A stretch of DNA of 64,000 nucleotides from Lachnospiraceae bacterium (GTDB lineage Bacteria; Bacillota; Clostridia; Lachnospirales; Lachnospiraceae): NCBI GenBank assembly GCA_031272985.1, contig JAISSU010000008.1:38800-102799 (forward strand), in the 5' to 3' direction. A program made the translations under genes and the position numbers. Under the pieces are notes generated by a model. It saw only the letters and a list, made by a program, of their open reading frames with translations. It did not search any database and was not told where the DNA came from. The first letter of the stretch is position 1; each line of letters begins with the position of its first letter. This document shows, piece after piece, positions 27,262 to 57,031 of the stretch.

Positions 27262-27406
27262 GTCTGGGGTATCCCCTGACCTTTAGTAGCGTAGACCGGA
27301 TTCACTTCGGTCGGAGCGAGGGGTGTCGGGGGTATCCCCTGACCTTTAGTAGCGTAGACCGGATTCACTTCGGTCGGAGCGAGGGGTGTCGGGGGTATCC
27401 CCTGAC
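27262..27406. repeat. palindromic interspersed repeat (family copy B): tandem array of 2.3 units of about 63 bp
   Basis: Three GTC(G/T)GGGGTATCCCCTGAC hairpins at 27262, 27325 and 27388. They are separated by two identical 43-nt spacers (CTTTAGTAGCGTAGACCGGATTCACTTCGGTCGGAGCGAGGGG), each with its own GACCG..CGGTC hairpin. Confidence 0.9.
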
Positions 27407-29214: not shown

Positions 29215-29517
29215 CTAAGCCTCAAAATCTACACAGCGTCGATTTTTCGTAAACGGTCGCACGGTTTCGGTCGCGACCTTTACGTGAGCCGGGTGTACCT
29301 GATACCCATTGAGCGCTTCTTGGCTTTCAAAGACACTGTATAAAACTAATTCCGCATTACTATTCGGAAGAAAACTATCATAGACCTTAATCTCCAAAAG
29401 ACCCGGAACCACACCATAAAGTGCCTCAAGCTGCGATTTAATATCAGAAGCTCTTTGCGCTTTCTCATCGTTTGAAAGACCATCAGCCATATCCCATAAA
29501 ATAATATGTTTTACCAT
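29215..29517 (-). CDS. Dabb (stress-responsive A/B-barrel) domain protein
   Basis: Track ORF 29215..29550; the start is likely MVKHIILWD. Dabb-like pattern ...LEIKVYDSF...HPAHVKV. Confidence 0.6.
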   Translation of the reverse strand: MVKHIILWDMADGLSNDEKAQRASDIKSQLEALYGVVPGLLEIKVYDSFLPNSNAELVLYSVFESQEALNGYQVHPAHVKVATETVRPFTKNRRCVDFEA

Positions 29518-29584
29518 TTTAGTATCCTCCGTTTGAGTTGATAATAGCATGTTTGCCGATTTACAGTCAATCAGGTTCCAAGGT

Positions 29585-30097
29585 CTAACTCTTCGCTATT
29601 TTTCTGAGTAGTATATATGGATACTCTATACCACCCAAATTAAGAAGTCGCTCATCAACCTTCTTAAACCCGTGTGTTTCGTAAAAGCTAATAGCGTGGT
29701 CATTATCCTTAAATACATCAAGTATAAAATCACAATATCCGAGTTCTGTAAGCACCTGCTGGGCTCTTTCAATTAGCATATGACCAAAGCCTCGACCGAT
29801 AAAATCAGACCGCAGGTAAAGTGCCGTGATTTCGCCATCATCCGGATAACCTTCTGTCAGCGATTTACCGAGAATTGCCGCGCCAATAAGATCGCCGTTA
29901 ATATGAAGCATAAGAAAATAAGAATTCCCGCTATCATAAAGCTTATAAAGTGCTGCGCTTCTTTTCTCAGTGGAGAGAGAGTCTAAATATTCGGGCGAAA
30001 GTAAATCGGCATAGGTTGCTCTCCATGCCTGATTAATAAATGCGGCGATACATTCTATGTCTGATTTTACGGCAAATGTGATGCTAATATTCATGTT
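29585..30097 (-). CDS. GNAT family N-acetyltransferase
   Basis: Track ORF to 30142; the likely start is MNISITFAVKSDIE. Acetyl-CoA motif RSDFIGRGFGHMLIERA. Confidence 0.7.
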   Translation of the reverse strand, partial: NMNISITFAVKSDIECIAAFINQAWRATYADLLSPEYLDSLSTEKRSAALYKLYDSGNSYFLMLHINGDLIGAAILGKSLTEGYPDDGEITALYLRSDFIGRGFGHMLIERAQQVLTELGYCDFILDVFKDNDHAISFYETHGFKKVDERLLNLGGIEYPYILLRKIAKS

Positions 30098-30168
30098 GCG
30101 CCTCGTCCTAAGAATTGATATTAGCATAGAAAATAATTTCACGTCAACGAATCAACGAATCAATAACC

Positions 30169-31389
30169 TCACCTGCGTCTTCCTTTTTGTTCTGCCGCTT
30201 TAAAATTATACAGTGGTTTAATTCTGGTCACAATTTCGGCAGTCGGTGCTATTTGTTCGATGATTTCTTCCATGGGCTTATAAGCCATAGGCGATTCGTC
30301 CAGCGTTTCCGGCAGTACGCAAGTGGAGTATATTCCGCTCATTTCGGCTTTGAATTCTTCCATTGTAAGCTCATTTCGGGCTTTATTGCGGCTCATGAGT
30401 CTTCCTGCGCCGTGCGGTGCGGAAAAATTCCAGTCGGGATTTCCTTTTCCCATGCAGATTAGGCTTCCGTCACGCATATTTATCGGAATCAGTAATTTTT
30501 CGCCTTCTTTTGCAGAGACGGAGCCTTTGCGCAGGATCATAGCCTGCGTGTCAATATAATTATGAATCGTCGTAAATTCGCCTGTTGATGCCAGTCGCAT
30601 CCCTATGAGAATAGTGTCAGCCATTGCCTTTCGGTTAAGCACCGCAAAGCGTTGTACAATCTTCATATCATGAATATAATCATCGAATAATGCGCCTTCG
30701 ACATAAGCTAAATCTTTCGGTACGGAAATTTCGGTTTCGGCTTTAAGACTTTTTATCGCCGTTTGGATTTCTTTATCGCGTCCTTCTTCTTTAAGCTGTG
30801 CAATAAAATCGTAAATTTGCACTTTTGAGCAGCCGCGCAGCGAGTTGTACCCTTCATTTTGATAGTAATCCGCCACCTCACAGCCCAAATGACGGCTCCC
30901 GGAGTGGACGACAATATAAATCTCCCCATTATCTCCGATATCAGCCTCGATAAAGTGATTTCCTCCGCCGAGAGTCCCGATGCTTTTATAGGCTCTATCT
31001 GCACTGATATGCTTTGCGCAACGTAATTGCGAGAGATCAATTTCCGATGCATATTTATGCGGTGTTTTGCGAATCTCAAAACCTGCCGGAATGTACTTAT
31101 GTATTACCTCATCTAATCGTTTAAAGTCAATGGATTTTACGTCCAATTGTATGGTTTCCATTCCGCATCCGATGTCCACCCCGACCATTCCAGGCACAAT
31201 TTTATCTGTAATGGTCATGGTCGTACCTATTGTGCAGCCTTTACCTGCGTGGACATCAGGCATTATTCGTATTTTACAATCTGAAAACTCCTCCTGATTG
31301 CAAACTTCCTTTATTTGCTGCGCCGCCGCGTCTTCTAATTGCGAAGTATAGCAAATGGCGCTGTTGAATTTTCCTTCTATCTTTACCAT
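30169..31389 (-). CDS. rtcB: RtcB-family RNA 3'-phosphate ligase
   Basis: 406 aa. Signature metal-binding motifs MPDVHAGKG and GVDIGCGM, with His-rich downstream segments (VHSGSRHLG, NHFIEA). Confidence 0.85.
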   Translation of the reverse strand: MVKIEGKFNSAICYTSQLEDAAAQQIKEVCNQEEFSDCKIRIMPDVHAGKGCTIGTTMTITDKIVPGMVGVDIGCGMETIQLDVKSIDFKRLDEVIHKYIPAGFEIRKTPHKYASEIDLSQLRCAKHISADRAYKSIGTLGGGNHFIEADIGDNGEIYIVVHSGSRHLGCEVADYYQNEGYNSLRGCSKVQIYDFIAQLKEEGRDKEIQTAIKSLKAETEISVPKDLAYVEGALFDDYIHDMKIVQRFAVLNRKAMADTILIGMRLASTGEFTTIHNYIDTQAMILRKGSVSAKEGEKLLIPINMRDGSLICMGKGNPDWNFSAPHGAGRLMSRNKARNELTMEEFKAEMSGIYSTCVLPETLDESPMAYKPMEEIIEQIAPTAEIVTRIKPLYNFKAAEQKGRRR

Positions 31390-31408
31390 CTTAAGTCACC
31401 TTTATTTT

Positions 31409-31431
31409 GGGTCAGGGGATAACCCTGACCC
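31409..31431. repeat. isolated hairpin of the palindromic repeat family (copy D), in the SPFH-rtcB intercistronic spacer
   Basis: GGGTCAGGG-GATAA-CCCTGACCC: a perfect 9-bp stem, the reverse-orientation relative of GTCGGGGGTATCCCCTGAC. Lies between the SPFH stop (31440) and the rtcB start (31389). Confidence 0.75.
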
Positions 31432-31439
31432 CTTTGCTA

Positions 31440-32561
31440 TTAAGTCAATTGTTTCTCTTGTTTCTGTGTTCCGTTTAAAATTCCGGCAAGCCCCGTAAGT
31501 AAATCAGTGCCTCCATTTACAGTAATATTACCTACATTGTCACAGATTTTCTCAATATACTCAAGTTCTTTAAGCTTATAAAGAGTTTTATTCTCATCCA
31601 TAAGCTTTGCCGTATTCAAAAGGCTTCTGGTGGAAGCGACCTCCTCGCGTCTGGTAATAACATTGGCTAAAGCTTTCTTCTCGGCAATAAGGACCGTATT
31701 CATAATGCTGCGAATCTCGCCCGGAAGTATAATATCTTTAACTCCCGCATCGGTGAATGTCACATGATATTCGGCTTCCCTTGCTTTAAGATAAGTAAGC
31801 ATTGCCTTTGACAATTGCTCCTTATTTTCCAAAATCTCATCAAGGCGATATTTACCGACATACTCACGCAAGGCAAGCTGTAAAAGGATGTGAATCTGCC
31901 CCTCATAGTCGTCAATTTCGGTGTGAATCTTCACATAATCGGTGATTTTATAAGTGCACACGAAATTAATGCGAAGAGCCACCTTGTCAAGCGTTATCAT
32001 TTCCTGCCCGGTAATATCCATCTGCAATTGACGTGTATCGACGATACCAGCGGTTATTCTGGTTCCGTTGTTCCAGAAATAATACGTCCCCGGTTCAAGC
32101 AAACGCATAAACTTTTGGTCAAACATAAGGCGGGCCTTTTGGAAATCCGCTACCTCTATCTTTGTGTACAGCCTAATCGGGATGTAAGCAAAAATATATT
32201 TCGGGACATCTTCGCCTACTTCCGGTATTTTAGTGTCGACGATTCTAAACTCATGCTTGTCATGAATTTTGAAAAACGCATATTTCCCGCTGGGCAATAC
32301 CTCTTTGAATTTATCGTTTACAAAATGCAAAGCAAGAGTCTCATCGGCGACCTCCAAAGTTTCCACCTCGTTTGCAATATCAGTATTTTCAAGAAATACT
32401 TCAATTGCATAGTCCTTTACTCTGAAATTGCCGCTTGCCGGTACAATTTCCACGCTAAAGCCGGAACCGAATCTTTTGTGTTTACCCGGCTTAAGGTAGT
32501 CTATAAATTTTCCATTTTTAAAAAGAAATCCTCTTTGATTCTCGTTAATAATTGTTCTCAT
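31440..32561 (-). CDS. SPFH/band-7 (stomatin/prohibitin/flotillin-like) domain protein lacking an obvious TM anchor
   Basis: The track ORF extends to 32621. The start at 32561 (MRTIINENQRGFLFKNGK) has an AAGGGAGGA ribosome-binding site 8 nt upstream. SPFH core (...VDTRQLQMDITGQEMITLDKVALRINFVCTYKI...) and a C-terminal coiled coil. Confidence 0.65.
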   Translation of the reverse strand: MRTIINENQRGFLFKNGKFIDYLKPGKHKRFGSGFSVEIVPASGNFRVKDYAIEVFLENTDIANEVETLEVADETLALHFVNDKFKEVLPSGKYAFFKIHDKHEFRIVDTKIPEVGEDVPKYIFAYIPIRLYTKIEVADFQKARLMFDQKFMRLLEPGTYYFWNNGTRITAGIVDTRQLQMDITGQEMITLDKVALRINFVCTYKITDYVKIHTEIDDYEGQIHILLQLALREYVGKYRLDEILENKEQLSKAMLTYLKAREAEYHVTFTDAGVKDIILPGEIRSIMNTVLIAEKKALANVITRREEVASTRSLLNTAKLMDENKTLYKLKELEYIEKICDNVGNITVNGGTDLLTGLAGILNGTQKQEKQLT

Positions 32562-32844
32562 TAGTACATTCCTCCCTTTTGTTGGTGTTTTTGCGGATTG
32601 CCCATACTGCGATTGCGGCAAAATGATTAAAGCATCTCATCGGCGATTGCGGAAGCGACAATGCTCTGGCAAAGGCGAATCATAAGCGGTATCCTCACTT
32701 CGGCAAGGCAAAAGCGGTACTGCATTTCCATTTCCCTTTAAAAGCGGCTATGTAATGCGAGACAATCCGCCACACCATTGTTAATTATTTTTGAGCTTCG
32801 AGATCTAATTGCTTTTGAGGCAATTTCCAAACCATTGGCTGACC

Positions 32845-32965
32845 TTTTATAAGATCAGGCGGGATTTGAACCCGCGATACACGCAAGTTACGCTTGGCAT
32901 ACCGTGAAAGCATGGCTTTTGGCACCGCCGGATAATCCGGATATCCGCGCAAAAGCGACCTTGCA
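32845..32965 (-). ncRNA. candidate structured ncRNA/leader containing a perfect tRNA T-arm mimic (tRNA-like element, not a functional tRNA)
   Basis: On the minus strand GCGGG-TTCAAAT-CCCGC (plus coordinates 32859-32875) is a 5-bp stem with a G53:C61-type closing pair and a 7-nt TTCAAAT loop that matches the T-loop consensus. A 6-bp hairpin (CTGATC..GGTCAG) follows it. No pairing partner for an acceptor stem and no anticodon arm were found. A TATAAT lies about 95 nt upstream on the same strand. Confidence 0.3.
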
Positions 32966-33026
32966 AAATTGATTATATGAATTGAAACGCAGAAAATCGT
33001 GGAAAAAAAGTTGCGAACTTAAAAAA

Positions 33027-33962
33027 TTAAATTTTGATTGTGCCAGAAAGAGCAAGTTGCATCCTGATTCGTTCTCTTATCAACCCAATAAAATGCTCAG
33101 GTCCGGTTACCTTAAGCATAGGACCAAAAGACAGAATCCTGATAAGAATTTCCGTCTCATCCAAAGCTTCGTAAGTCAGCTTTACATCGTATGTATCGTC
33201 ATCTAAGCGTCTGGTTTCCTTGCGGCAGTCCGAAAAATGAAGCATAACCCGTTCAAGCGCGTTGCGTTCATTTTTTAGCGTGAATTGAACCAAGGCCTCT
33301 TGGCGTTTCGGAATAATCAGACGTTCGCCTTCATAGTTTTCGGCTAAGGTGCAGCTTTTGATGCGACTTAGGTTAATATACGCAGCATATCTGCCACCTG
33401 CTGTTTCAAGCCTGAATTTATCATCCTTTGAAGAATATTCCAAACGATAAGGGATAAAGCGCCCATTTACACTTTTGTTGTGGCGGTTGCGATATTCGAT
33501 ATTTAGTCGCCGCTGTTCGTAAAAGGCTTTCAGTATCGTCCTAAAGTGTAAGATGTAAGACTCGTCAGTAAAGGGATCCCCATCTAAATAGCGATCAAAG
33601 TAAACAAAGTCATCCGGGGTAAATAACGGCTCTACATGTTCAAGCCCCGAAACGCAGATATCAAAAAGCCTGATGCGGGGGTCGAGTAATAGTGCTTTTA
33701 GCCAACGTTTTTGCAAAATCGTTAAAGGCATGGAAGGTTTATTTTTAATCGGTGTATTAAAATTCTTATCCATAATCAACCAGTCACCGTTTTTAAGCGA
33801 TGGGATAATGCTCAAAACGCTTTCGGAAAACGCCCGATCTCGGATAATCCGGACAATGCGTTTTTCATTGATTTCGCCTTCCAGTGTATCTGTAATGATG
33901 GCGGCAATCGCGTTAAAATATGCGCTGTAGACCTCGCTAAAGAGCATTCTCGTTACCTCCAT
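33027..33962 (-). CDS. WYL-domain transcriptional regulator (second of a tandem pair)
   Basis: 311 aa. WYL-like core ...GRFIPYRLEYSSKDDKFRLETAGGRYAAYINLSRIKSCTL plus a C-terminal extension. Overlaps the upstream WYL gene's 3' end. Confidence 0.55.
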   Translation of the reverse strand: MEVTRMLFSEVYSAYFNAIAAIITDTLEGEINEKRIVRIIRDRAFSESVLSIIPSLKNGDWLIMDKNFNTPIKNKPSMPLTILQKRWLKALLLDPRIRLFDICVSGLEHVEPLFTPDDFVYFDRYLDGDPFTDESYILHFRTILKAFYEQRRLNIEYRNRHNKSVNGRFIPYRLEYSSKDDKFRLETAGGRYAAYINLSRIKSCTLAENYEGERLIIPKRQEALVQFTLKNERNALERVMLHFSDCRKETRRLDDDTYDVKLTYEALDETEILIRILSFGPMLKVTGPEHFIGLIRERIRMQLALSGTIKI

Positions 33963-35178
33963 ACATTTTATTCAAAGTATCAAAATCCTCCCAAAACAGC
34001 TGTTGTGTCCTTCGGTCAGTGCACTTTAGCGAACATATACGCCCTATAAAGGTCCGAAGCCACGGAATCATCTCCCCGGGATCATATACATCAGCGGAAA
34101 ACTTCCATTCAGTTTCTGAAATCTGTGATATATTGCCACTTCGTTTTTCCCTCTTAAGCCTGTTAATTATATGAGCATCTTTTGGATCAATATTAAGTGT
34201 CATTTCGATATGAGAAGGTTCATGAAAAGCAGGGGAAACGCCCCATACATGCGGCATATCATCCTTTAGCATATCCTGATAAAAAGCGAACTCACAGCAT
34301 GTATCCAAAGGTTTTACTTTGTTGATTGCATCTATGCGTATGAATTGAATCCTCTTTTTTGAGCTGACATAAGCCGCGACATATTGTCTGCCGCCCTGGG
34401 TGCTTATATAGATTTTAAGAGGTACGGCGATAATCTTTCTGTGACGCCTTCGGTGGTCGGTCGCCGTTTCGAGTTCTACCTGCTTTTTATCATGTATTGA
34501 AGATAATAAATCAAGTAATATTCCATCATCCAAAGCAAACAAGAAGTATTGATGTTTAAATGAAAAAATTGGAAGCGGCGGTTCTTTGTACTTGTCCAGA
34601 ATAAAGCTTCCGATTACTCCGAGAGGATTTCCTTCTGAAAAGAAGGTGACAGCGTCTTTCCACAAATCCAATGGGATTTCGTTATCGGGCAGGAGATACA
34701 GATGTTGTTTTCCTTCTTGAATTCTATTAATCAAGCCGATTTCAGTATATTCTTTCAGCTTTTTTCGCAAGGTAGACACATCTATCTCATCGGGGCAGTC
34801 GAAAAAAGCCATGTAATCATTGTCGATAGACTCAATCAATTCTGTAAGGCTTCTCGGATTTTTGTCAGCTAAGATATCGAGAAGAATAAAGTGCAGATTA
34901 ATATCATTTTTCGTAAAACTCGCGGCTTTCCACGCCGTGTAGAAAGGGTTATGCGCAATATGCCTGCTGTCAAGGATAAGAAAAACCGTTTTCTGATTAG
35001 CGTCCTGTCGAAATGACATATAATCCGAAAGCCAGCTCTCGATACGCCGCTTTTCGTTATCGTAACTGCGAGTGCTCTTTGTGCCGACTTGCTCCCTGCT
35101 CTTAAAACCGTACACAAAAAACTCTCGTAAATAATCACGAATACGCGAAACATCTTTAATTAGCTCGTTGTAAGCCAT
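33937..35178 (-). CDS. HTH-WYL-WCX-type transcriptional regulator (first of a tandem pair; PafB/PafC- or BrxR-like architecture)
   Basis: 413 aa. N-terminal winged-HTH-like region and a central WYL domain (KIIAVPLKIYISTQGGRQYVAAYVSSKKRIQFIRIDAINKV), which fits the ...P.xL....WYL.a....R.FRldRI pattern. Confidence 0.65.
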   Translation of the reverse strand: MAYNELIKDVSRIRDYLREFFVYGFKSREQVGTKSTRSYDNEKRRIESWLSDYMSFRQDANQKTVFLILDSRHIAHNPFYTAWKAASFTKNDINLHFILLDILADKNPRSLTELIESIDNDYMAFFDCPDEIDVSTLRKKLKEYTEIGLINRIQEGKQHLYLLPDNEIPLDLWKDAVTFFSEGNPLGVIGSFILDKYKEPPLPIFSFKHQYFLFALDDGILLDLLSSIHDKKQVELETATDHRRRHRKIIAVPLKIYISTQGGRQYVAAYVSSKKRIQFIRIDAINKVKPLDTCCEFAFYQDMLKDDMPHVWGVSPAFHEPSHIEMTLNIDPKDAHIINRLKREKRSGNISQISETEWKFSADVYDPGEMIPWLRTFIGRICSLKCTDRRTQQLFWEDFDTLNKMYGGNENAL

Positions 35179-35205
35179 TTTTTACATCCTTGTTATTATT
35201 GTAAA

Positions 35206-35370
35206 GTTATTCAAATTCTTCTGTGATTATTTCAGATTTCAATATATTTGCTACAACAGCATTTCCTAAAACAACGATGTCATCTTTCTCATCTGCGTCT
35301 TGTTTATAAAATCTCCAACATTCCTCACCATTTGTAACTGTTAAATATACTGTCAAGGAAATGTTTTCAT
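35206..35370 (-). CDS. micro-ORF, hypothetical (54 aa)
   Basis: MKTFPLTVYLTVTNGEECWRFYKQDADEKDDIVVLGNAVVANILKSEIITEEFE. Its ATG overlaps the stop of the upstream ORF as ATGA. Sits 27 nt upstream of the WYL gene on the same strand. Confidence 0.3.
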
Positions 35371-35657
35371 TCGATTTCCTCTGCTCTCATTTCTGCAAGC
35401 ATTCGGTCAACATCTTCTTTCGAAAGTAGCCCAACTTTTTCGGCTTCGCCAGCCATACCCCCTTGCAAAACTTTCATGGCGTAAACCATTGAATTCATCA
35501 TAATCACGCGATCGCCCTCACAGATAAATTTCATACGTATTTCAACACATAATATATCACATAAACCCATCCCAAGAAGCCATGAAAGAGCATCCACAGC
35601 ACGGAATGCCATGTGGTAAATGATATTATCATTGCGACTATGCTGCCTATTCCCCAA
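35367..35657 (-). CDS. small hypothetical protein (55-96 aa, start uncertain)
   Basis: Track ORF. The C-terminal part MKFICEGDRVIMMNSMVYAMKVLQGGMAGEAEKVGLLSKEDVDRMLAEMRAEEIE has a clean composition. Translationally coupled to the next micro-ORF. Confidence 0.3.
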   Translation of the reverse strand: MGNRQHSRNDNIIYHMAFRAVDALSWLLGMGLCDILCVEIRMKFICEGDRVIMMNSMVYAMKVLQGGMAGEAEKVGLLSKEDVDRMLAEMRAEEIE

Positions 35658-50150: not shown

Positions 50151-50219
50151 TTGTGTGGTCCCCCTCGGAAATACACTAAAAACCTGATTGAAAGTGCTAT
50201 ATTTAATTGTCAGCAGAAA

Positions 50220-50293
50220 CGTCCATAAGAGGATTCGAACCTCCGGCCTGTCGCTTAGGAGGCGACCGCTCTATCCTGCTGAGCTATATGGAC
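50220..50293 (-). tRNA. tRNA-Arg (anticodon CCT)
   Basis: 74-nt cloverleaf on the minus strand. 7-bp acceptor stem (GTCCATA/TATGGAC), D-arm GCTC..GAGC, anticodon stem GTCGC/GCGAC with loop CTCCTAA, T-arm GGAGG-TTCGAAT-CCTCT. CCA is not encoded. Confidence 0.9.
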
Positions 50294-50327
50294 GTACAAA
50301 ATGTACTTCTTTGGTACGTCCGTTACT

Positions 50328-56420: not shown

Positions 56421-57031
56421 CTAAAAATGGCCCACTCATGTTGCGCACTCTTCAGCAGTATTACTTTCGCAAAATTAATTCTACTGATTCTGTGGGCATT
56501 AGGGAAGGGGGTAACCTCTTTCCTTTTTTAGTATGACGGGCATGCCGTCAGTCTGTGGTGAAAGTCCACAAGGGGCGTAGTTGCCGACGAACCCCAAAGC
56601 GACTCCCAAGGCTTACACTGTGAAGTGTGGGCGAGAAGAAGGGATAGCGAAATCGTAGCCTGACGAACAGAAACCTGATATAAGGCGTACATGGCGGATA
56701 AGCTGGCTAAAGACAGCGAAGTCCAAAAGGCAACCGTAACCCATGTGCGTAAATCAGGCAGGTAGACGAGGAAAGACTGGGAGGCTTATCCCGTGAGGTC
56801 TCACAGGCGGTATCATTAGCCGTAGTAACAATGAACTGTGAGAAGTCAGCAGAAGCCGTAGTAGGCAGCGCTTTGAAATGGGCACTGCCAAAGGGCTGAA
56901 CAACGTAACTGTGTAATCAAATGTATGCTCCATGGAATACCTGACGGCAGGAAGGGCAAAACGTAAATGAGCAGACCCTGTGCCACATAGGGCGAATCCA
57001 TGAAACCGGAAAGGAGAAAGCACACAATGCA

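Follow-up and report, generated by a model that had tools for sequence, protein, structure and literature searches.

A member of the Band-7/b7a-tRNA/RtcB family in a Lachnospiraceae bacterium, with a pair of WYL regulators and a large structured leader RNA

A system made up of the RNA ligase RtcB, a Band-7 (SPFH) protein and a tRNA-like RNA called b7a-tRNA was predicted by Burroughs and Aravind (Nucleic Acids Res 2016), as reported in bioRxiv 10.1101/312249. The passage in which Wang et al. treat this prediction describes it as lacking experimental validation, and adds that b7a-tRNA and YrlA swap partners now and then. Here we describe a locus of this kind on the minus strand of a 64,000-nucleotide (nt) stretch of DNA from a Lachnospiraceae bacterium (GenBank assembly GCA_031272985.1, contig JAISSU010000008.1, positions 38,800 to 102,799; hereafter the window), in which two WYL-domain regulators (WYL1 and WYL2), a non-coding gap, an SPFH gene and the gene for RtcB follow one another. 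The abstract of the 2016 paper reportedly speaks of 'SPFH/Band-7 modules' with 'a novel tRNA-like molecule' as potential scaffolding cofactors. A 2026 survey places an SPFH gene within the rtcR-rtcAB locus of P. aeruginosa, and our search of the literature turned up no subsequent experiments on this SPFH branch. The link between WYL regulators and RNA repair was probably already made in 2016, since the lines of Iyer et al. 2021 (PMC7824862) that concern WYL domains and 2',3'-cyclic RNA ends cite Burroughs and Aravind 2016 together with Makarova 2014.

Every testable feature of the Band-7/b7a-tRNA/RtcB system was found at the locus, which is a member of that system and not a new one. An earlier note, written from the DNA alone, had held that the combination matched no described system; that claim falls with the computer prediction of 2016, of which the locus is one of many members. 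RtcB, an adjoining Band-7 gene and a tRNA-like RNA are all present, as is reported of the b7a-tRNA system. However, the RNA of the locus is not a free-standing tRNA (ARAGORN finds none); it has a closed acceptor-like stem and lies within a leader of about 380 nt that carries a second covarying domain. The size and architecture of this large leader RNA may be undescribed, and possibly so is the arrangement of promoter and operator under the WYL pair.

A second comparison is with Y RNAs. In the Salmonella YrlA paper, most YrlA RNAs are described as tRNAs in circularly permuted form whose acceptor stems are closed, and the Salmonella RNA has its T stem-loop at positions 33-49, its acceptor at 50-64 and its D stem-loop at 67-81. 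The order of T stem-loop, closed acceptor and D stem-loop is equal in the locus RNA, whereas the structure flanking this tRNA-like module differs. For YrlA, modification of the T-like and D-like loops by TruB or Dus has been shown. The Salmonella rsr-yrlBA-rtcBA operon (Ro60, YrlA/YrlB, RtcB, RtcR) resembles the locus in joining RtcB to an RNA with a tRNA-like domain, to a putative oligomeric or ring-like scaffold and to a ligand-sensing regulator encoded alongside. In contrast, the regulator of the locus is a WYL pair and its scaffold an SPFH protein, and its RNA lies upstream of the scaffold gene, is much larger and belongs to no Rfam family. Neither Ro60/TROVE nor RtcA nor RtcR (CARF, sigma-54) was detected by Pfam among the window genes or by clustering among the conserved neighbours in 80 related loci. 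The locus was thus rejected as a Ro-associated YrlA, which would require a TROVE gene, and as an E. coli-type RtcR/RtcA operon, neither gene being in the cluster. It was also rejected that its RNA is a canonical tRNA, given the closed acceptor hairpin and the negative tRNA finders.

The 80 related loci were taken from 516 confirmed relatives gathered by an SPFH alignment scan, with one genome per species. Counts are given over these 80 loci or over the subsets that could be evaluated, namely 70 loci for the upstream WYL genes and 74 for the downstream RtcB gene. Neighbouring genes were identified by tblastn with the window proteins, and all adjoining open reading frames (ORFs) were also clustered. 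The 80 species-level genomes span Clostridia, Erysipelotrichales, Coriobacteriales and others, and include Oscillospiraceae, Lachnospiraceae, Acutalibacteraceae, Erysipelotrichaceae and one metagenome-assembled genome of the Coriobacteriales, among others.

The order conserved in these loci is WYL-WYL-gap-SPFH, usually with RtcB next. WYL1 and WYL2 lie directly upstream of SPFH in 56 of the 80 loci, and five more loci are cut inside WYL2, which gives 61 of 70 evaluable loci; RtcB directly follows SPFH in 56 of 74. Since this arrangement is kept across related loci, the juxtaposition is real and not accidental. The conserved unit consists of WYL1, WYL2, a promoter block, a structured RNA, SPFH and usually RtcB. 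The comparison of homologous loci that the earlier note had asked for therefore shows the WYL pair, the gap and the SPFH gene to be kept in relatives, and its picture of an RNA-repair-type module stands, with the WYL pair in the place of the regulator, a tRNA-like RNA in that of the Y RNA and an SPFH protein without a membrane anchor in that of Ro60. Seven loci (L005, L016, L034, L050, L053, L065 and L075) keep the tRNA-like RNA and SPFH and have no WYL genes within the upstream flank.

In the window, all six genes named in that note were recovered from the ORF list on the minus strand, co-directional, and these genes, the gap and the T-arm mimic within the gap lie where the note had placed them. 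WYL1 occupies 33937-35178 (413 amino acids) and WYL2, its paralogue, 33027-33962 (306 amino acids from the source-annotated start at 33947). The overlap between the two regulators is real, though its earlier wording was muddled: WYL1 with its 3' end runs over the 5' end of WYL2. The SPFH gene extends over 31440-32621 as the longest ORF and over 31440-32561 (373 amino acids) from its conserved start, and the RtcB gene over 30169-31389 (406 amino acids). With the SPFH start at 32561, the gap measures 465 nt (32562-33026), against a median of 531 nt in related loci, and it is conserved end to end, the promoter block coming first. The earlier note, which had seen in the gap an untranslated stretch carrying a T-arm mimic, was right about the mimic and understated the rest, which comprises a promoter and an RNA of about 380 nt with two domains.

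The leader RNA, predicted at 32593-32965 (about 375-380 nt), would begin just after the -10 hexamer and stop some 20 nt short of the SPFH ribosome-binding site. It is conserved along its whole length in the 54 loci of the promoter and leader alignment. No intrinsic terminator was found between the RNA and SPFH, and the two are probably transcribed together with RtcB. No family of Rfam 15 matches the leader, whether at gathering thresholds over the whole window or at E <= 10 over the gap, where the matches are fragments of the T-arm only.

At the centre of the leader is the tRNA-like module (32807-32877). It opens with the T-arm mimic GCGGGTTCAAATCCCGC at 32859-32875, as the earlier note had placed it, and 0-1 nt beyond the T-arm comes a closed acceptor-like hairpin (32839-32858), then a D-like hairpin, CCAG-UGGU-UUGG, with a GG dinucleotide (32827-32838), and a fourth hairpin with a 7-nt loop (32807-32825). 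Single-sequence folds return this tandem of four hairpins in most of 50 related sequences. A covariance model of the module, R1, was seeded with 36 sequences and matches 72 of the 80 loci once each, many of them outside the seed; in the window it matches 32808-32877 with 70.1 bits (E = 2e-15). The T-loop motif, with a covarying stem, is present in 72 of the 80 gaps. In the alignment derived from R1, paired cells make up 90%, a share that falls to 34-45% in slid controls. Compensatory changes are seen in 19 of 21 pairs, and the covariation reaches a score of 0.47, compared with 0.09 at most. This alignment is fitted to the model and so biased towards the proposed structure; the helices are nonetheless considered real because of the slid controls and because whole-helix swaps are visible, such as CGUAUGC/GCAUAUCG, CUGACC/GUCAG and CCCGGUG/ACCGG. 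Frequent G-U pairs are consistent with the gene strand.

Neither ARAGORN nor the Rfam tRNA model finds a canonical tRNA in the gap of the window. ARAGORN calls a tRNA in three of the 80 related gaps, and these calls were rejected: the acceptor pairs by chance with an upstream GUAUGCC and without covariation, for GUAUGCC is invariant while the strand after the T-arm changes. That strand covaries with a partner downstream. The RNA contains a circularly permuted tRNA mimic made of T-arm, closed acceptor hairpin and D-like hairpin. Between the 5' helices and the T-arm, many relatives have a further hairpin that resembles an anticodon arm (loop CUGUNAA), and about 19 loci have a second T-loop hairpin, GGGGUUCAACUCCCC (e.g., L013 at about 1040-1090 and L026 at about 960-1000). 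Both are missing in the clade of the window.

Downstream of the tRNA-like module, a 3' domain of about 180 nt (32593-32770) is predicted to form five nested helices, closed by the pairing of 32762-32770 with 32593-32602, and it contains two invariant loops, GGAUACC (32688-32694) and GCCUUGCC. In alignment A6, which holds 49 sequences, RNAalifold proposes 41 pairs, of which 38 show double or compensatory changes. In slid controls 35-45% of cells are paired, whereas the alignment has 88.6%; its covariation score of 0.695 compares with 0.13-0.15, and none of 500 shuffles reaches the observed values. At the other end of the leader, RNAalifold on 50 sequences predicts 5' helices over 32885-32947, comprising a 5' hairpin (32929-32947), a GGUGC...GUAUGCC helix (32896-32926) and an AAG...CUU hairpin (32885-32895). 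Their inner pairs covary; for example, one pair is AU in 28 sequences, GC in 11 and CG in 4, and another is CG in 21 and AU in 20. A candidate pairing between GGUAUGCC and the GGAUACC loop has both sides invariant. A pseudoknot between GCAAGG of the 5' part and GCCUUGCC of the 3' domain was dropped because the substitutions, judged by eye in the alignments, are inconsistent.

The protein that follows the RNA matches Pfam Band_7 (1e-28), is named 'slipin family' and has an N-terminal extension of about 150 amino acids. The ATG at 32561, which is preceded by GGGAGG, was taken as its start because the homologues are about 365 amino acids long; their identity is 58-78%. No transmembrane or hydrophobic segment was found in it, the maximal Kyte-Doolittle value being 0.95 over 19 residues, which agrees with the earlier note's claim that the protein has no membrane anchor. 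SPFH lies 50 nt upstream of RtcB. The latter matches Pfam RtcB (6e-62), and its sequence has DIGCG, GGGNHF, HNY and HGAGR, so that the catalytic motifs appear intact. We take these motifs to be the metal-binding and GMP-histidine sites.

The promoter block lies between WYL2 and the RNA. The predicted -10 hexamer of the leader/SPFH/RtcB promoter is TATAAT at 32972-32977, behind a weak -35, and it aligns with TGGTAAAAT or TATAAT in the related loci (54 loci), where the -10 is good and often extended and the -35 is likewise weak. Upstream, a conserved promoter-proximal site, AAGTTCGCAACTTTTTTTCCACGA (32997-33020), is a candidate operator half-site for the WYL pair and keeps a constant distance to the -10 in 54 aligned loci. 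In most loci the region contains a palindrome, AAAAGCTGCGRACTT-N6-RAGTTCGCAGCTTTTTTT (its arms are also given as AGCTGCGAAC-N-GTTCGCAGCT and as AAAAAAGCTGCGAACT / AGTTCGCAGCTTTTTT), after which come, at invariant spacing, CCGTGA, a spacer of 19 nt and TGGTAAAAT or TATAAT; in L012 (6452-6489) it is a perfect 16-nt inverted repeat. The window has the right arm only, with no left arm and no hairpin, and the same is true of its closest relatives, the clade having lost the left arm. The candidate operator would extend from roughly -45 to -78, upstream of the -35 position and not over the -10 or the start site. A second copy of AAGTTCGCAACTTTTTTTCCACGA upstream of WYL1, as auto-regulation might use, was not found; the site occurs once in the window.

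The palindrome may serve as both terminator and operator. A role as a protein-binding site is suggested because conservation extends to the sequence itself as well as to the pairing, with a fixed distance to the -10, and because the clade of the window keeps the right arm without the hairpin. From this we infer that the conserved GTTCGCAGC site is the operator of the WYL pair.

The regulators themselves were difficult to place by sequence. The PADLOC WYL model matches WYL1 and WYL2 at 2e-9 and 6e-9, respectively, and NCBI names both 'WYL domain-containing protein'. In Pfam, WYL2 has matches below threshold to WYL (9e-4) and WCX (2e-3) and WYL1 has none, and for both proteins the NCBIfam search was sub-threshold or empty. 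Searching with hmmsearch against PafBC of the Protein Data Bank (PDB) gave marginal values for WYL1 (E 0.06-1) and no match for WYL2, and hhalign relates the two regulators to each other with a probability of 10%. Because the profile searches were marginal, structure prediction and Foldseek were required. AlphaFold models were built on alignments of homologues and compared with the PDB. The WYL1 model, with a predicted local distance difference test (pLDDT) score of 65, matches DriD, BrxR, PafBC and CapW at E about 1e-10, and the WYL2 model, with a pLDDT of 84.5, matches the same four at about 1e-8. The best PDB match of WYL2 is PafBC bound to RNA polymerase, and DriD is also among its best. 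On these models, both regulators are winged helix-turn-helix (wHTH)-WYL-WCX proteins of the DriD/PafBC/BrxR/CapW fold, and WYL1 has an additional, winged-helix-like unit at its N-terminus.

The PafB/PafC analogy drawn in the earlier note therefore stands at the level of the fold and not at that of sequence, where orthology to PafB/PafC was rejected. The pair resembles PafBC and DriD in the wHTH-WYL-WCX fold and in the combination of a conserved upstream motif with a weak -35 promoter, and PafB/PafC in that two paralogous subunits are encoded side by side. It differs in that profiles reach no better than E 0.06-1, in the extra N-terminal unit of WYL1 and in its target, here an RNA-repair operon, whereas PafBC and DriD control DNA-damage regulons.

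Relatives of WYL1 were also found on large secondary replicons. On pCX012922 of Enterococcus raffinosus (L081, 312-7146), a tandem WYL pair (38% identity) stands back-to-back with a Hen1-Pnkp-RlaP operon. The divergent promoter region has a related repeat, CGAACTA-N7-TAGTTC (a GAACT...AGTTC palindrome), which here is not in a terminator position. An IS30 element is inserted after WYL2, and neither an SPFH gene nor, by the R1 model, a tRNA-like RNA was found at this locus. The likeness to the Pnkp-Hen1 operon thus extends to the same, divergently placed WYL pair, while the ligase is another one and SPFH and the RNA are missing. Since the same pair adjoins Hen1-Pnkp-RlaP in E. raffinosus, the WYL family is common to different RNA-repair cassettes, and this ties the pair to RNA repair in general and not to SPFH in particular. 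A third setting was observed on pTS1 of Treponema saccharophilum (L082, 5001-9519), where a gap of 557 nt separates a WYL pair from a downstream gene for a diguanylate cyclase; the gap has no match to the tRNA-like model.

We consider it likely, with a probability of roughly 0.65, that the locus is an RNA-repair system of the type proposed by Burroughs and Aravind, in a form common in Clostridia and placed under a WYL pair. WYL1 and WYL2 would act jointly, in the manner of PafB/PafC, on the GTTCGCAGC site or palindrome upstream of the weak -35, and a signal of nucleic-acid damage, received by the WYL domains, would activate transcription. The transcript would start with the structured RNA and run into SPFH and RtcB. 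The RNA, in cis or after processing, might bind an oligomeric, soluble SPFH protein, as Y RNA binds the Ro60 ring; the resulting SPFH-RNA particle could present or select broken tRNA-like substrates, whose 2',3'-cyclic-phosphate and 5'-OH ends RtcB would reseal. Within this scheme, binding of the conserved site by the WYL pair and its response to a nucleic-acid damage signal are likely. The chances appear about even that the RNA, by analogy with Ro60 and Y RNA, teams up with an oligomer of SPFH in support of RtcB.

Several observations weigh against this scheme. WYL regulators can repress, as BrxR and CapW do, as well as activate. In most relatives the palindrome is shaped like an intrinsic terminator of the WYL operon, so that part of its conservation could reflect that role, and the window holds a single half-site. 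In 18 of 74 loci no RtcB adjoins SPFH, and the role of the RNA-SPFH pair may not strictly require the ligase. Because RtcB is absent in a quarter of the loci, the data suggest that the RNA-SPFH pair is the functional core, with a ligase that is exchangeable or encoded elsewhere. Finally, the window RNA folds no more stably than its shuffles (z = -0.85); single-sequence stability being unremarkable, the case for the leader structure is comparative and made by covariation alone.

The RNA could also be nothing but a cis-acting leader, that is, a decoy substrate or sensor through which cleavage, re-ligation or a ligand controls the SPFH-RtcB message. The RNA is contiguous with the SPFH ribosome-binding site and no terminator intervenes, which would suit such a role, as would the riboswitch-like appearance of its 3' domain, which is large and highly conserved and has invariant loops, and the 18 loci that combine RNA and SPFH without RtcB. 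However, no expression platform was seen in the form of a terminator, an anti-terminator or a consistent sequestering of the ribosome-binding site, the RNA matches no riboswitch or T-box family, and its topology equals that of YrlA, which works in trans within a ribonucleoprotein; we therefore regard a purely cis-acting leader as unlikely. The direction of control is another matter. A repressor of the BrxR/CapW type, sitting on the palindrome and freed by the damage signal, would agree with BrxR and CapW being among the best structural matches and with a palindromic candidate site, which is typical of dimeric repressors. But the site lies upstream of the -35 and leaves the -10 and start site uncovered, a weak -35 with a good, often extended -10 fits activator-dependent promoters, and the top match of WYL2 is PafBC on RNA polymerase. 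Repression is hence rather doubtful, and we lean towards activation because of the site upstream of a weak -35 and the close structural matches to PafBC and DriD.

The T-arm might further be taken for the relic of a tRNA gene or of the attachment site of a mobile element, in a neighbourhood assembled by accident. ARAGORN does call a tRNA in three of 80 gaps, and mobile DNA (a group II intron) is present elsewhere in the window. Yet 72 of 80 loci, drawn from different families, have the module in one and the same place, and all four of its helices show compensatory changes. In addition, covariation links the strand after the T-arm to sequence downstream and not to the invariant GUAUGCC that ARAGORN uses, and a search of 50,697 phage records gave no relative of WYL1. 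A relic is hardly credible, and the conservation data refute it. For the RNA-repair system under WYL control, a more far-reaching proposal can be put forward tentatively, at somewhat less than even odds. In short, b7a-tRNA may be the tip of an undescribed class of RNAs of 380-460 nt, absent from Rfam, in which a YrlA-like permuted mimic is joined to a five-helix domain of about 180 nt with invariant loops; this RNA would be made from a promoter that depends on the WYL pair, with an operator doubling as the terminator of the regulator operon, and would organise a soluble SPFH cage in RNA repair.

Beyond the conserved unit, the cluster of the window includes a GNAT gene (29585-30142) and a Dabb gene (29215-29550), both assigned by Pfam, and two micro-ORFs (35367-35657 and 35207-35356), all on the minus strand. 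The micro-ORFs and the ORF fragments upstream have no Pfam match even at E <= 1. Neither tblastn nor neighbour clustering found a counterpart of GNAT, Dabb or either micro-ORF in any of the 80 related loci; these genes are passengers, and their inclusion in the unit by the earlier note has to be withdrawn. The only further recurrent neighbour in the clustering is the RlaP nucleotidyltransferase (PF10127, 1e-90), which lies 3' of RtcB in seven loci and in L060 (8158-8907) replaces RtcB after SPFH. The top neighbour cluster consists of ORFs of 55-116 amino acids over the leader RNA (minus-strand 32785-32952 and 32888-33055 in the window, 6425-6775 in L028). These were rejected as spurious; they look conserved because the underlying RNA is.

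Some other elements of the window were recorded. A REP-like element, GGTCAGGGGAYANCCC, occurs eight times (31409-31431, 20949, 21016, 27266, 27329, 27392, 44613 and 44676), where 0.02 occurrences are expected. In the space between SPFH and RtcB, one copy forms a 9-bp hairpin. The element is particular to this genome and does not belong to the conserved module. The same unit makes up a 63-bp tandem repeat at 27262-27406 (2.3 copies, 98% identity) between a 2-hydroxyacid-dehydrogenase-like gene and an enolase-like gene. Domains D1-D4 of a group II intron lie at 56614-56896 on the plus strand (RF02001, 126.7 bits; RF01998, 47.7 bits), and the sole canonical tRNA of the window is a tRNA-Arg (CCT) at 50219-50294 on the minus strand.

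The question on which this family of loci bears is what the substrates of bacterial RtcB are and which cofactors guide it. The family offers a compact system of four parts, namely a sensor pair, an RNA, a scaffold and a ligase, with an RNA structure that is well constrained by abundant covariation and a rare SPFH protein without a membrane anchor. It is carried by cultured organisms such as Oscillibacter valericigenes Sjm18-20, Dielma fastidiosa JC13, Acetonema longum and Aminipila terrae. The presence of the WYL pair beside Pnkp-Hen1 as well suggests a general WYL-based sensor of RNA damage, parallel to the CARF-based RtcR.

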